Shown here one piece after another: positions 58,101-61,100 of a stretch of DNA of 64,000 bases. Made by a program: the position numbers. Origin of the DNA: an uncultured Verrucomicrobiae bacterium (GTDB lineage Bacteria; Verrucomicrobiota; Verrucomicrobiia; Chthoniobacterales; Terrimicrobiaceae). The stretch covers positions 512,001 through 576,000 of the forward strand of contig CAVPOC010000003.1 in assembly GCA_963706955.1 (NCBI GenBank). The letters are read 5' to 3'. The stretch's first letter is position 1. Every line of letters begins with the position of its first letter.

Positions 58101-61100
58101 CCAAACCTACCCCGTCCCCAAAGTTTGGTGGAGACCCGAAACTCCACCAAAAATTGGTGGAGCCTAGGGGATTCGAACCCCTGACCTCCTCAATGCCATT
58201 GAGGCGCTCTACCAACTGAGCTAAGACCCCGTCGCTATCGCAACCGAGTATTATTGCGTGAACATCGGCCTCCGCAAGAGCCATTTGTCGCTGCTTTTTC
58301 GATCTGTGAAAATCGGCGAAATCAGTGGACGAAATTTCCGCGCGTGCCTGGCATCAGCCATCAGCTATCAACCATGAACCCGTTTCTATCGCTTGCCGTC
58401 CCCCGTTGGGCAATTCAGTATCGCTCACGGATCGCAGCTTGTGGCACTAACACGGGATCGAATCAACGCGCTTACTGAAACGGGGGATCGCACGCCTTCA
58501 GGAGCAGACACGTCGGGAGCGCCGACTTGAACCTCTCGGCCTGGGTACTCGTCGGAGCGGCCGTCGGTGCCCTCTGCGGCTTATTCTTCGGAGAATATGC
58601 GGCCGTGCTGGAGCCGATCGGTGGGGTGTATGTATCGCTCCTGGAGATGGTGGTGTTCCCATTCATCGTCAGTTCGTTACTGCATGGGCTTGGTAGCTTG
58701 CGCTCCGCCACAGCGCTCAGGTTGTTGCGAGCCGGCTGGCCGGCGTTCCTCCTCGCGTGGGGCGGCACATTGGCCGCTTTGTGGCTGCTGGCTCAAGCAA
58801 TTCCTGAGGCCCGTCCACCCATCGTCGTCACCGCGGATCGAGGCCAAGGCGCTTCGCAACTAGTCTCGCTGTTGATTCCGGCAAATCCGTTTGTCGACCT
58901 CAGCCGGAACTACGTGCCAGCGATTGTGGTATTCTGCGTTTTTTACGGTATCGCGATCCAACGGATTGAGAACAAGCAAGGCGTTCTGAGCGGACTGGAA
59001 GTCGTTAAACAGGCCTCGGTCACGATTTGGAAATGGGTGGTGCGCATGGCCCCGGTTGGTGTTTTCGCTCTGTTCGCGGACCTCGCGGGGACGATCCGAC
59101 TGGAAGTTGTCGGAAACCTTTTCCTCTACGTTATCCTCTTTATTGGCGGTGCTTTGATCCTCGCGTTTTGGGTGATCCCATCGCTGATTGCTGCCCTGGT
59201 TCCCATCGGTCATCGCGAACTGCTCAAGGAGCTGAACAGCGCCATTGTCATCGCCGTCGTCACCTCATTGCCGGTCACCTCCGTGCCATACATCGTTCAG
59301 ATGACTGAACGTCTGGCGGCCCGTTGCCAGGTTAAAGACGCGGATCGTGGTGAGATCATCTCGACCACCATGGGGGTCAGCTATCCGCTCGCTCAGCTGG
59401 GAAATCTGTTTGTATTCCTCTTCATTGTTTTCGCCGCGTTCTATTTCCACGCGGCCTTGCAAGGCGCGGCATGGATGGCTCTGCCGCTGCTCACGGTCTT
59501 GTCAACGGTGGGGACGCCGGTCTCGACCGTGGATGCGGTTGAGTTCTTTGCCAATTGGCTCCGTCTACCCGCAGATGCCCAGCTCCTCTACGTTGAGATG
59601 ATGACCTTGACACGTTACCCACAGGTTCTGGTGTCGACGATGGGTCTCGCCTTCATTACCATTTTGGTGCCGCTCTCCTACTACGGCGTTACGAAGATAC
59701 AGCCGCGCAAGCTGGCGGTATCCGTAATCATCAGCATTCTGCTGCTCGGCGGACTTACGCTGGCTAGCCGGGCCGTCCACACCGTTCTGGCTGAAAAGCA
59801 ACAGAATCCCTATTTGCACTTTACCCTGGAAGAAAATCTCGTTGGGGCGACCGAGGTGGCTTTGCATCGCGAAGCATTGCCAGTCGTCGAACCTGTTGGC
59901 CCGCCGACGCTGGACCGCATTCGCCAAACGGGCCGGCTCCGAGTCGGCTTTGGCCCGCACGTCATACCGTTCAGCTACTTCAATGCAACAAGCGAGCTAG
60001 TCGGCTATGACATCGCCTTTGCGTATGCCTTGGCACGCGACCTCGGCGTCAACTTGGAACTGATTCCAATCACCGATTGGGCGACCCTAAGCGACGATCT
60101 CAAAGCAGGACGCTACGACCTCGCCCTCGGGGGAGTCTACGTCACCGACGAGCGGCTGCAGGCGCTCACGGTCTCCAAGCCCTATCTGCAAAGCCAGTTG
60201 GCGCTGATCGTTCGCTCCAACAAAGCTCCCAGGTTCCTGAATGGTCCAAGTATCAAACGAGAGAAAGGCCTGAAAATCGCGATCTTTAAAAGCGACATCC
60301 TGGAACCGATGGTCCGGACGCTGTTTCCTCAAGCTGAAGTGGTGGTCGTCCCCGACTATGACGTATTGCTTCGCGACAACAGCATTGATGCGGCGCTCTG
60401 GACTTTCGAACAGGCCAGAGCGTGGGCGGCGGCGAATCCAGGCTTCTCTGCGGTCCGCCCGACCGATTTTGGCGCGCCGCTTTTGATCGCCTACCTAATG
60501 CCACCAAACTCGGACGAATTTGCGAATTTTATCAATCAGTGGCTGGACTTGCAGAGGGCAAACGGCTTCGAGCAGCGGATGAAAGAGTACTGGCTCGAGG
60601 GAAAGCCGCGAGTCGATCAACAACCGCGCTGGAGCATCATGCGCAACGTGCTCCATTGGGTGGACTGAGGCGCTATCCACTTCATCCACAGATTTCGCAG
60701 ATTACACAGATTCATATCTGAGAGAACTCGTCGGCGTGCGCTGCTTACACTGGGTCGCTCGGTCCCTAGCGCCTAAGGCAACCTCTTCTCAGCTATGAGC
60801 TCAACCACGAACTTGCCTTGCGTGCTTCCCTTCTTATTCTGTGTAAATCAGTGAAATCTGTGGATAAAATGCGGCCTAGTCGTGACGAGTCACTCGGGTC
60901 GAGTTGCAATTTCGCAGGATCTGAATAGCCTGCTCGGCACGCTCAGGCTCGGTCTTCACGAAGACAAACTTTCCGTCGTGAATAAACGCCGTGGCATATC
61001 CACCGATCACATCGTGAGACAAGTTATAGCGCCCCAACTGGGCCTTGAACGCCTCGACAATGGTGCGACGATCCGGCTTCGATATCAAATTCGGTGCGTT

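Follow-up and report, generated by a model that had tools for sequence, protein, structure and literature searches.

ATP-free uptake that depends on a binding protein has long been ascribed to the TRAP (TC 2.A.56) and TTT transporters, with TAXI-GltS proposed in 2025 as a third such family; Jaques et al. (2025) give TRAP and TTT as the only secondary transporters known to use a solute-binding protein (SBP) before TAXI-GltS. Each of these systems joins a secondary, probably elevator-type carrier to an extracytoplasmic binding protein, and Jaques et al. (2025) argue for an association of SBPs with elevator-type carriers. Single-chain fusions occur in TAXI-GltS too, as 14 InterPro entries, mostly from Lachnospiraceae (Jaques et al. 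2025). GlnPQ/OpuA-type ABC importers also have an SBP_bac_3-type domain tethered to the translocator by an anchor or linker. The glutamate-transporter-fold carriers of the SDF/DAACS family (TC 2.A.23; GltPh, GltTk, EAAT, ASCT, DctA, GltP) are a separate group. No description of an SDF-SBP fusion came up in full-text literature searches, in keeping with a preliminary description of the present locus, which held that DAACS is not known to use a binding protein.

Here we describe such a fusion, encoded in a 64,000-nucleotide stretch of DNA (the window) from an uncultured Verrucomicrobiae bacterium. We think it probable that the protein is a single-chain secondary importer with a tethered binding domain, predicted to serve a carboxylate-bearing solute. 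The features of the gene are listed below in window coordinates, with their basis in brackets; counts out of 73, here and throughout, refer to an alignment of 73 family members.

58527..60668, + strand: whole gene for the fused permease and binding-domain protein of 713 aa (single ORF with no internal stop, TTG start, stop included)
58515..58519, + strand: Shine-Dalgarno-like GGGAG, 7 nt 5' of the TTG start (read from the sequence)
58527..59687, + strand: SDF/DAACS (glutamate-transporter-fold) permease, residues 1-387 (Pfam, hhalign, VIA)
59211..59324, + strand: HP1 hairpin, residues 229-266 (hmmsearch alignment to GltPh chains; model helices 229-246 and 249-266; conservation)
59346..59444, + strand: TM7, residues 274-306 (profile-profile alignment)
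59463..59558, + strand: HP2 hairpin, residues 313-344 (profile-profile alignment)
59574..59681, + strand: TM8, residues 350-385, with conserved T362-R363-Y364, Q366 and S370 (model helix; hhalign/VIA register)
59682..59702, + strand: short basic loop, predicted cytoplasmic, residues 386-392, with K390 inside (net charge in 73 members)
59703..59789, + strand: extra transmembrane helix, "TM9", residues 393-421 (hydropathy, model, conservation, gap in canonical SDFs)
59790..59903, + strand: linker, residues 422-459 (AF2 model, family conservation)
59904..60599, + strand: type-II SBP_bac_3 solute-binding domain of the CDT/AncCDT branch, residues 460-691 (Pfam, sequence and structure matches, VIA)
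60600..60665, + strand: family-specific C-terminal tail, residues 692-713, P-R-W-S-I-x-R-N-V-L-x-W (family conservation)

The N-terminus MNLS... is common to the fusion protein and its close homologues, and 58050-61100 of the window yielded no sigma-70-like promoter. R394 and K395 lie near the start of TM9, just past the basic loop at residues 386-392. Pfam places SDF at residues 3-331 (E 3.9e-35, 122.1 bits, cut-off 27.9; profile positions 1-331 of 387) and SBP_bac_3 (PF00497) at residues 471-690 of the same chain (E 2.1e-25, 89.5 bits, cut-off 26.4), which bears out the earlier statement that both domains lie on one ORF. The Pfam scan of the protein returned only these two domains, with no output domain, BPD_transp_1 or ABC ATPase. 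All 17 NCBIfam matches fell far under their cut-offs, leaving no equivalog name for the fusion protein.

The fused paralog noted in the preliminary description was likewise recovered, at contig C6:317791-319896; it is 46% identical to the fusion protein over residues 7-709, has an ORF of 737 aa and carries the same two kinds of Pfam domain. These two are the only SDF-family genes found in the genome. Among 362 relatives, 117 of the best 120 have both PF00375 and PF00497, as do 144 of 150 cluster representatives (50% identity; 130 nearly complete; identity down to 26-30%). The SDF-SBP fusion is a genuine, conserved architecture and not an artefact, and the earlier argument against an assembly error stands. 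At E <= 1e-30 there are 601 cluster representatives, among which may be some unfused relatives. Relatives were found in 139 species genomes, and 80 loci were kept for analysis. By a tally of record titles, these 80 span at least eight lineages, mostly diderm: Alphaproteobacteria (33), Verrucomicrobiota (16), Bacteroidota (12), unspecified Proteobacteria (6), Desulfarculaceae/delta (5), gamma/beta (3), Binatia (2), and Methylomirabilota, Anaerolineaceae and Acidobacteria (1 each). Soil and rhizosphere metagenomes contain the gene, and in soils and sediments the family is not uncommon. Two RNA libraries held short contigs at ~98% identity to the gene, which is a weak hint of expression and too little for a claim. 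The family is widespread and apparently undescribed.

Some relatives are short. Five of them (P0163, P0171, P0196, P0248 and P0265) contain the N part only, and P0153 and P0163 end in low-complexity tails; at two loci (L027 and L055) the ORF ends early, yet the tblastn match continues through, and another (L048) has lost the binding domain and has unrelated genes downstream. A natural two-gene (split) system was considered as the source of the inspected short relatives and rejected for these, which seem truncated or frameshifted, in a search that did not extend to the shorter length class of homologues.

For the gene neighbourhood, all ORFs of the 80 loci were clustered, and 135 immediate neighbours of 73 loci were scanned against Pfam. 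No neighbour recurs beyond lineage-level synteny among the 80 loci, the maximum being 11/80, and the immediate neighbours are heterogeneous across loci. In 11 of the 80 an ABC ATPase is encoded no more than 8 kb away; at least in the four Verrucomicrobiota loci that were checked, and next to the paralog, it is accompanied by a phosphonate-type ABC system. A D-2-hydroxyacid dehydrogenase was seen in five loci by clustering and in one further, adjacent case (L040) by the neighbour scan, while a PhnD-like binding protein, a class-I methyltransferase and a TPP enzyme recur in four loci each, and an FAD oxidoreductase and NAD-GDH in two each. The 80 loci yielded no pathway or substrate clue from gene context. 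With neighbours as varied as these, no further component is needed. Unlike the fused ABC importers, the protein includes neither a BPD_transp_1 permease nor an ABC ATPase, and neither stands consistently alongside; ATP cannot power it.

We then compared the permease with solved transporters. The AF2 model built from the 73-sequence alignment (pLDDT 90.6, pTM 0.86) exceeds the earlier one (82 and 0.74) and again has a helix at 393-421 separating the two domains. When residues 1-388 were compared using VIA, the matches included EAAT3 (8ctc_A; Z 37.0, rmsd 2.6 over 371 residues), GltPh (6uwl; Z 34.1, rmsd 3.1 over 364 residues) and ASCT2 (Z 33.9). Foldseek matched the N part to the ancestral aspartate transporter with TMt 0.71-0.73 over 391-399 columns, and hhalign of the permease against 20 canonical SDF members gave a probability of 99.8. 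The model contains eight TM helices and two re-entrant hairpins, superposable on solved SDF members, and the claim of a complete glutamate-transporter fold is upheld. The fused proteins score 122-163 bits against Pfam SDF, versus 239-382 bits for canonical members of the same phylum, and a profile of residues 228-428 (the HP1-TM8 half) retrieved no transporter from the PDB, its best match being an unrelated protein at E 0.19. The core of the permease, made up of HP1, TM7, HP2 and TM8, has diverged much further than the label "GltPh-type" would lead one to expect.

The anchors that the fusion protein shares with SDF/DAACS are T246 and P254 in HP1, P287 and N293 in TM7, and G329 and P331 in HP2. 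In the hmmsearch alignment to GltPh, the HP1 tip reads S-L-P-V versus the canonical R-S-S-S, and the serine-rich motif is missing. In the profile-profile alignment, P287 and N293 fall on GltPh P304 and N310, with N293 retained in 55/73 members, and the five residues after the N310 position ("MDGTA") are deleted, leaving no SDF N-M/L-D-G-T stretch in TM7. A TM7 register with A-Q-L-G-N under N-L-D-G-T, obtained by single-sequence hhalign against GltP and DctA, was dropped; the profile-profile register is preferred because two invariant Asn residues align there. In HP2, whose tip is three residues shorter, GltPh G351 and P356 are matched by G329 (retained in 70/73) and P331. In TM8, a low-confidence extended hhalign and the end points of three superpositions put R363, Q366 and S370 at the positions of GltPh D394, R397 and N401, the TM8 substrate ligands; the preliminary description had equated the TM8 Arg with R397, a reading that these alignments contradict. 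In this register the canonical ligand set is replaced, with Arg at the R363 position in 43/73 members.

The Na+ ligands of SDF proteins are given as S/T92-93, N310, M/S311, D/E312 and D/E405 (Reddy et al. 2025). Of these, N310 alone is retained, as N293. No residue of the fusion protein aligns with T92/S93, and the D405 position is L374 and hydrophobic (I, F, L or M) across the family. Nor does the permease show the H+-type signature (L311, N405). Because the Na+ ligands are absent, energy coupling would not be GltPh-like.

With the classical motifs all gone (HP1 SSS, TM7 NMDGT, TM8 D/R/N) and the HP1-TM8 half showing no sequence match to solved transporters, the protein might no longer transport at all, the permease part instead being a membrane anchor or ligand receptor ("transceptor") with a role in sensing, adhesion or something else. 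We consider this quite improbable, since the whole 8-TM, two-hairpin fold is retained at Z 33-37, neither an output domain nor a conserved partner gene was found, and the genome's only SDF-family members found are this gene and its paralog. In addition, hairpin-tip and TM7/TM8 polar residues are invariant at >=45% identity, as for a working site; the invariant permease residues are T362, R363, Y364, Q366, S370, N293, G329 and P331.

The helix that sets the fusion protein apart from canonical SDFs is TM9, which appears as a 29-residue helix in the AF2 model, as a 32-residue gap in canonical SDFs by global hhalign, and outside every structural match by VIA, all in agreement with the extra helix first placed at about 393-421. 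It is hydrophobic in 73/73 members (a stretch of at least 19 residues, Kyte-Doolittle >=1.68). Across the 73 members, the net charge of residues 384-397 has a mean of +3.1 and a minimum of +1, and that of the stretch after TM9 is +0.1. GltPh has an N-in/C-in topology. Given that TM9 occurs in 73/73 members with a basic loop before it, the binding domain would lie outside the cell, and the periplasmic placement proposed earlier is thus backed by a conserved hydrophobic helix and a charge bias. One could instead suppose that TM9 does not span the membrane and that the binding domain is a cytosolic ligand sensor, the topology being a predicted one. We find this hardly credible in view of the hydrophobic stretch in every member, the charge bias of an in-to-out helix and the 29-residue model helix, and SBP_bac_3 domains are, to our knowledge, extracytoplasmic in all characterised settings.

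The linker after TM9 includes a short strand and is semi-conserved along a stretch of aromatics and Leu (Y429, F432, L434), with a pLDDT of 91 at 431-450 and 69-72 at both ends. A complex prediction of the permease (1-425) with the domain (456-713), run with 73-row alignments and no controls, scored 0.29, with the mark at 0.32. TM8 of GltPh belongs to the moving domain, and the compatibility of an elevator stroke with a tether through TM9, directly after TM8, is not obvious.

The binding domain shows the two-lobed Venus-flytrap fold together with the SBP_bac_3 profile. Its best sequence match by phmmer is AncCDT-3 (5jos; E 1.9e-31), and PDB 6h30 is also among the phmmer matches. VIA superposes residues 460-691 on AncCDT-1 with Z 26.1 and rmsd 1.9 over 224 residues, and on AncCDT-1/PaCDT with Z 25-26 and rmsd 1.9-2.3; Foldseek gives the C part TMt 0.87-0.90 against AncCDT-5, PaCDT and AncCDT-1. 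The closest relatives are therefore those of the CDT branch (PaCDT, AncCDT-1/-3/-5, Pu1068, Ws0279), as first described. Compared with that branch, the fusion domain has an N-terminal membrane tether and a conserved 22-residue C-terminal tail. The tail falls past the end of all SBP/CDT matches, in sequence and in VIA structural comparison, and is conserved at R701 (69/73) and W702 (70/73); W689, directly N-terminal to it, is found in 73/73 members.

Substitutions in the domain were taken from the phmmer alignment with 5jos and numbered after the Clifton et al. preprint, which describes roles in CDT for Glu173, D21, N152, K100, N128, T132 and N133. Trp60 (W518) and the carboxylate-binding Arg85 (R543; Arg in 63/73) are retained. 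The general acid E173 is replaced by Q629, with Gln in the paralog too, and the alpha-amino-binding D170 by T626, a position with Thr or Ser in 59/73 members and Asp in 2/73. The rest of the CDT network is also replaced (D21 to H478, Y22 to V, K100 to L558, N128 to F587, T132 to I591, N133 to L592, N152 to Y611). The residue changes listed in the preliminary description hold except for T132V, the residue being Ile591 here and Val in the paralog. The motif of alpha-amino-acid binders, an Arg plus an ammonium-binding Asp, is half present, with the Arg in place and the Asp replaced.

Because CDT and its reconstructed ancestors are the top matches of the domain in both sequence and structure, and because Glu occupies the general-acid site in 9/73 members, we considered an enzyme-transporter fusion, in which a periplasmic cyclohexadienyl-dehydratase-like domain makes a product that the permease imports. 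The reconstructed ancestors, however, score high partly as consensus-like sequences, the general acid is Gln in both the fusion protein and the paralog, and seven further CDT residues are substituted as given above. The E173Q change abolishes PaCDT activity, according to the Clifton et al. preprint. This makes the enzyme fusion very improbable; by its residues, the domain is a CDT-branch binding domain and not a dehydratase. R543, W625 and Q629 of the domain are invariant at >=45% identity, and given such residues and the counts across the 73 members at the R543 and T626 positions, both putative sites, in the permease and in the domain, appear to be under selection. The pocket composition suggests two ideas for the ligand: it may be a carboxylate of hydrophobic or aromatic character, or else a zwitterion resembling betaine. 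The latter derives from the aromatics W518, Y538, F587, Y611 and W625 and from the relative Pu1068, which was crystallised with sulfobetaine according to the entry title.

The domain (T626) and TM8 (R363 at the D394 position) are both without the alpha-ammonium-binding residue, and the two sites would in this respect agree with each other. E. coli DctA, a dicarboxylate carrier, has Ser at the same Asp position. This parallel loss suggests one shared ligand class, and it bears on another explanation, in which the domain is a regulatory sensor that gates or tunes a permease taking its substrate directly from the periplasm. Canonical SDFs function without a binding protein, SBP_bac_3 domains are sensor modules in other proteins, the anatomy of the fusion protein also fits a gating role, and the conserved tail and partly ordered linker could fix the domain in a regulatory position. 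In the known cases, ABC importers with fused binding domains and TAXI-GltS, on the other hand, the domain is read as a donor. On balance we regard a sensor as unlikely.

In the tethered importer that we favour, the divergent elevator-type permease would end in the cytoplasm, as in its relatives, and the added TM helix would return the chain outward, where the ~40-residue linker would hold the Venus-flytrap domain in the periplasm, above the permease. The domain would capture a carboxylate (or similar anionic) solute without a free alpha-amino group, close on it and dock onto the outward-facing permease. The solute would be passed to the remodelled HP1/TM7/HP2/TM8 site, in which Arg replaces the alpha-amino-binding Asp of amino-acid carriers, and the transport domain would then move it inward. 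Transport may be coupled to H+ via different residues, or it may be coupled weakly; under the second option, affinity and directionality would come from the tethered domain. The analysis establishes the architecture, the fold, the conservation, the signals of topology and the absence of the catalytic and Na+-binding residues. We infer the hand-over from domain to permease, the direction of transport, the substrate class and the coupling, as well as, from anatomy, the dependence of transport on the binding domain. We would like to note that uphill uptake of an anion is unexplained, given that no coupling-ion site is recognisable. The family may also not be uniform, because key positions vary, as seen for R363 and for the E173 position.

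Relative to SDF/DAACS, the protein adds a ninth helix and a fused periplasmic domain to a fold that is common over residues 1-388. Relative to TRAP, TTT and TAXI-GltS, its membrane fold is SLC1-type and not DASS-like DctM/Q or GltS, and its binding domain is SBP_bac_3, normally an ABC partner, and not DctP, TAXI or Bug; with only SDF and SBP_bac_3 in the Pfam scan, no DctM/DctQ, TctA/TctB or GltS component is present. Fusion is the rule in this mainly diderm family, in contrast to TAXI-GltS. The likeness to these systems is one of working principle, not ancestry. The protein would represent a fourth and independent family of secondary transporters that rely on a binding protein, and the first to use the SLC1/GltPh elevator. 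Its class-F ABC-type domain would be tethered permanently through a ninth helix, the Na+ sites of the ancestral carrier would have been given up, and the charge at the TM8 site would be reversed. On this proposal we are evenly divided.

If true, the family would extend the elevator-carrier rule to the best-studied elevator, the glutamate-transporter fold, and offer a natural way to test whether binding proteins can join elevator-type carriers only. Being a single polypeptide, the system would call for no assembly of components in expression, reconstitution and imaging, and it would let docking and hand-over from a Venus-flytrap to a moving transport domain be studied, along with the elevator stroke of a transporter with a helix attached to TM8 and the replacement of Na+ coupling. 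Should the carrier prove to have little or no coupling of its own, affinity and inward direction would stem from the tethered domain. For the bacteria themselves, the family would mark a further uptake route in Verrucomicrobiota, Alphaproteobacteria and Bacteroidota.

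The gene at window positions 58527-60668 (+) is one uninterrupted reading frame of 713 codons that opens with TTG, with GGGAG 7 nt 5' of this start; the N-terminus, MNLS..., is common to close homologues. Per Pfam searches, an SDF domain (residues 3-331, E 3.9e-35, 122 bits) and an SBP_bac_3 domain (residues 471-690, E 2.1e-25) lie on the same chain, confirming the fusion of a permease and a solute-binding domain in a single ORF that the preliminary description had reported. In sequence searches of the PDB, the N part is nearest to an 'ancestral uncoupled aspartate transporter' (9bgz, residues 6-330) and GltPh (7-262), and the C part to AncCDT-3 (E 1.9e-31) and AncCDT-5, followed by AncCDT-1 and PaCDT, i.e., to a cyclohexadienyl dehydratase (CDT) and its reconstructed ancestors. 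NCBIfam returned 17 weak matches (DctA/GltP-type carriers and amino-acid-binding proteins); since every one falls well under its cut-off, no curated name applies to the fused protein. The genome (4.16 Mb, 92.5% complete), in which the window spans C3:512001-576000, has exactly two SDF profile matches, this gene and a paralog (contig C6:317791-319896, 46% identical, ORF of 737 aa) in which both domains are present, as had also been described. All factual statements of that description that could be re-run were reproduced, apart from small corrections.

That the fusion is real and not an assembly error is borne out by its relatives. Both Pfam domains are found in 117 of the best 120 among 362 relatives from a collection clustered at 90% (proteins of ~713-799 aa). 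Searching 1.84 billion representatives (50% identity) exhaustively with HMMER yielded 9364 matches at E<=1e-3, 1949 at 1e-10 and 601 at 1e-30, many of the weaker ones presumably being unfused single-domain relatives; among the best 150 (median length 721 aa, identity down to 26-30%), 144 align to the query in both its halves, and in 130 the two are matched nearly in full. When a single genome from each species was scanned, 139 genomes had a relative. Assigned by record titles, the 80 loci kept belong to Alphaproteobacteria (33), Verrucomicrobiota (16, including the nearest relatives, 73-85% identical), Bacteroidota (12), unspecified Proteobacteria (6), Delta/Desulfarculaceae (5), Gamma/beta (3), Binatia (2), and Methylomirabilota, Anaerolineaceae and Acidobacteria (1 each). 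The few short relatives inspected look more like truncated or frameshifted copies than like a natural two-gene form, no search aimed at the 'shorter' length class having been made. In two MAGs (L027:7718-9857 and L055:7974-9269), the ORF stops after ~430 aa and tblastn similarity runs on to the end; these interrupted genes could be pseudogenes or long-read assembly errors. One further locus, L048, has a gene copy without the binding domain.

The Pfam model gives canonical SDF genes 239-382 bits in a sample of 60 further genomes from the window's phylum. Lower scores in these genomes come from long frames of 729-779 aa (145-163 bits, in 3 genomes), presumably of the fused type, and otherwise only from canonical-type genes that are broken or split, of which there are two (fragments, in genomes G002 and G031). 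The two fused genes of the source genome score 122-132 bits. Since the scores of the fused proteins (122-163 bits) lie under the canonical range, we regard them as a distinct, divergent SDF subfamily.

An AlphaFold2 model built on a 73-sequence alignment (mean pLDDT 90.6, pTM 0.86) contains, in order, the TM8 helix (350-385), a short loop, an extra helix (393-421, here TM9), a partly ordered linker, an alpha/beta domain and a terminal helix (704-708). By Foldseek and VIA-align, modelled residues 1-388 match EAAT3 (8ctc_A; Z 37.0, rmsd 2.6, 371 aligned), GltPh (6uwl; Z 34.1) and ASCT2 (8qrs; Z 33.9), every one of the best permease matches being an 'intermediate outward-facing' state, and modelled residues 460-691 match AncCDT-1 (5t0w_B; Z 26.1, rmsd 1.9, 224 aligned) as well as PaCDT and AncCDT-5 (Z ~25.5). 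Residues 388-460 and 691-713 are covered by no structure match from either program and are family-specific additions. A C-terminal tail (residues 692-713, window 60600-60665) with the motif P-R-W-S-I-x-R-N-V-L-x-W ranks with the most strongly conserved stretches of the protein (R701 in 69/73 and W702 in 70/73 members; W689 in 73/73) and is without counterpart in free binding proteins or CDT.

The extra helix had been proposed to put the binding domain in the periplasm. TM9 is hydrophobic in 73/73 aligned members (best 19-residue Kyte-Doolittle mean at least 1.68, average 2.24), net charge averages +3.1 (minimum +1) in the loop preceding it and +0.1 in the stretch following it, and a global profile-profile alignment opens a gap of 32 residues in canonical SDFs opposite TM9. 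The C-terminus of glutamate-transporter homologues is reportedly cytoplasmic. Taken together, these signals support the proposal and argue for a periplasmic binding domain. TM9 hangs directly on TM8, which in GltPh is part of the moving domain.

Pocket residues were read from a sequence alignment of the fused protein to AncCDT-3 (5jos), numbered after Clifton et al. (5jos chain number minus 11, checked on T19-G20-D21-Y22 and W60).

Pocket positions of PaCDT and the aligned residues of the fused protein
D21: H478
Y22: V479
W60: W518
T80: Y538
R85: R543
K100: L558
N128: F587
T132: I591
N133: L592
N152: Y611
D170: T626
E173: Q629

Passages of the Clifton et al. preprint describe Glu173 as the general acid of PaCDT, with E173Q abolishing activity, and tie Asp170 to the alpha-amino group. 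Since these positions hold Q629 and T626, the fused domain is, by its sequence, no dehydratase, and alpha-amino acids are unlikely ligands. Of 73 members, 59 have Thr/Ser and 2 have Asp at the D170 position, and 41 have Gln and 9 have Glu at that of E173; the carboxylate-binding Arg is retained (R543; Arg in 63/73). Most of the pocket lining is hydrophobic or aromatic. The paralog is identical at almost every pocket position and has Val at T132, which accounts for the previously reported T132V: this change holds for the paralog and not for the protein studied here (I591). The other reported pocket changes (E173Q, D170T, N128F, N133L, with the Arg kept as R543) recur in our alignment.

The N-terminal two thirds of the permease align well with solved transporters; with the HP1-to-TM8 half alone, a profile search of the PDB finds no transporter. 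In hairpin HP1, T246 and P254 correspond to GltPh T275 and P283, and the tip reads S-L-P-V in place of R-S-S-S. The family profile was also aligned to one of 20 canonical SDFs, namely 18 from the window's phylum together with GltP and DctA of E. coli (probability 99.8). P287 and N293 correspond to GltPh P304 and N310 in this profile-profile alignment, and the five residues after N310 ('MDGTA') are deleted in the fused family. In hairpin HP2, G329 and P331 correspond to GltPh G351 and P356, and the tip is shortened by a three-residue deletion. Only N310 is kept, in sequence alignments, of the Na+ ligands listed by Reddy et al. 2025 (S/T92-93, N310, M/S311, D/E312, D/E405), and the H+-type signature is also missing from the fused permease.

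For TM8, hhalign under relaxed settings (global mode; local with mact 0.05) gives a gap-free continuation, at low confidence, in which R363/Q366/S370/L374 lie beneath GltP D390/R393/N397/N401, i.e., GltPh D394/R397/N401/D405. This register is supported by two independent points. R363, Y364, Q366, V367 and S370 share the spacing 0, +1, +3, +4, +7 with the canonical D, M, R, T and N. In addition, the superpositions end with model residues 385-386 at GltPh 416, 388 at EAAT3 469 and 386 at ASCT2 487; extended along the continuous helix, these offsets would set Q366 at R397/R447/C467 and R363 at D394/D444/D464, which we take to be the TM8 residue numbers of GltPh, EAAT3 and ASCT2. An earlier reading by eye, in which the TM8 Arg was equated with GltPh R397, is not supported, as alignment, spacing and offsets all put R363 at D394. 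Whichever register is taken, the alpha-amino-binding Asp is absent from TM8; E. coli DctA, a dicarboxylate carrier, likewise lacks it (Ser). Domain and permease, each without such an Asp, consistently point to a putative solute that carries an anionic group but lacks a free alpha-amino group.

Genes and elements around the fused gene (window coordinates)
50505-52187 (-): CstA carbon-starvation (peptide/pyruvate-type) permease, upstream
52328-53683 (+): MFS/Sugar_tr transporter, upstream
56754-58162: ISL3-family insertion sequence, 365 bp upstream
56917-58092: ISL3 transposase (DDE_Tnp_ISL3 + Zn_ribbon_ISL3)
56754-56781 and 58135-58162: imperfect ISL3 inverted repeats, 28 nt
60876-61283 (-): 135-aa ORF with no Pfam match, downstream
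61045-62211: class-I SAM methyltransferase, downstream, ~0.7 kb from the fused gene with the 135-aa ORF between

Metagenome contigs with the fused gene depart from the window at ~58230, so strains may differ in whether they have the ISL3 insertion. In a close relative (L008:10152-10973), a ~270-aa class-I SAM methyltransferase lies 10 bp downstream of the transporter gene; in two Pseudomonadota MAGs (L045:7163-7966, L046:443-1246), one of that size lies 5 bp upstream, and a DAO-family FAD oxidoreductase occupies the other flank of the transporter gene. The paralog type in Verrucomicrobiota stands divergent beside a PhnD-like (phosphonate/phosphite-type) ABC system (L003:6461-8908, which is contig C6 of the source genome, next to the paralog; also L021, L031, L035 and L085), and in the source genome, L035 and L044 it is followed downstream by a TPR protein; this neighbourhood is probably lineage synteny. 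At most 11 of the 80 related loci share any one neighbour gene family, and the immediate neighbours (135 proteins, 73 loci) are heterogeneous, so the fused protein appears self-sufficient, and its surroundings point to no pathway. Soil and rhizosphere metagenomes contain near-identical DNA, with at least half of the sampled words present in 15 runs, and two RNA libraries, with one short contig each at ~98% identity, give a weak hint of expression.

Nearest in working principle are TRAP, TTT and the newly proposed TAXI-GltS, each a secondary carrier served by a binding protein. Passages of Jaques et al. 2025 name TRAP and TTT as the only ones known with a binding protein before TAXI-GltS, and suggest the elevator mechanism as what permits the partnership. 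The ancestry of the fused protein is a different one: a divergent SDF/SLC1 member forms the membrane part, and the soluble part is an SBP_bac_3 domain, a kind normally serving ABC importers and, according to a review, likewise fused in some of them. TAXI-GltS fusions amount to 14 InterPro entries, mostly Lachnospiraceae; the SDF-SBP fusion, unlike these, is the rule in its own family and is found almost wholly in diderm lineages, so the tether is not explained by a missing periplasm. Word matching of full-text literature, with subscription journals mostly outside its coverage, found no description of the SDF-SBP fusion; some JGI names show both domains ('Na+/H+-dicarboxylate symporter/ABC-type amino acid transport substrate-binding protein'). 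The earlier interpretation stands as to architecture, topology signals and apparent novelty, and is revised as to TM8. We rate the protein as a case of predicted binding-protein-assisted secondary transport, a known principle on a new carrier fold: the principle is that of TRAP, TTT and TAXI-GltS, and what appears novel is the SDF/SLC1 fold as the carrier putatively put to this use.
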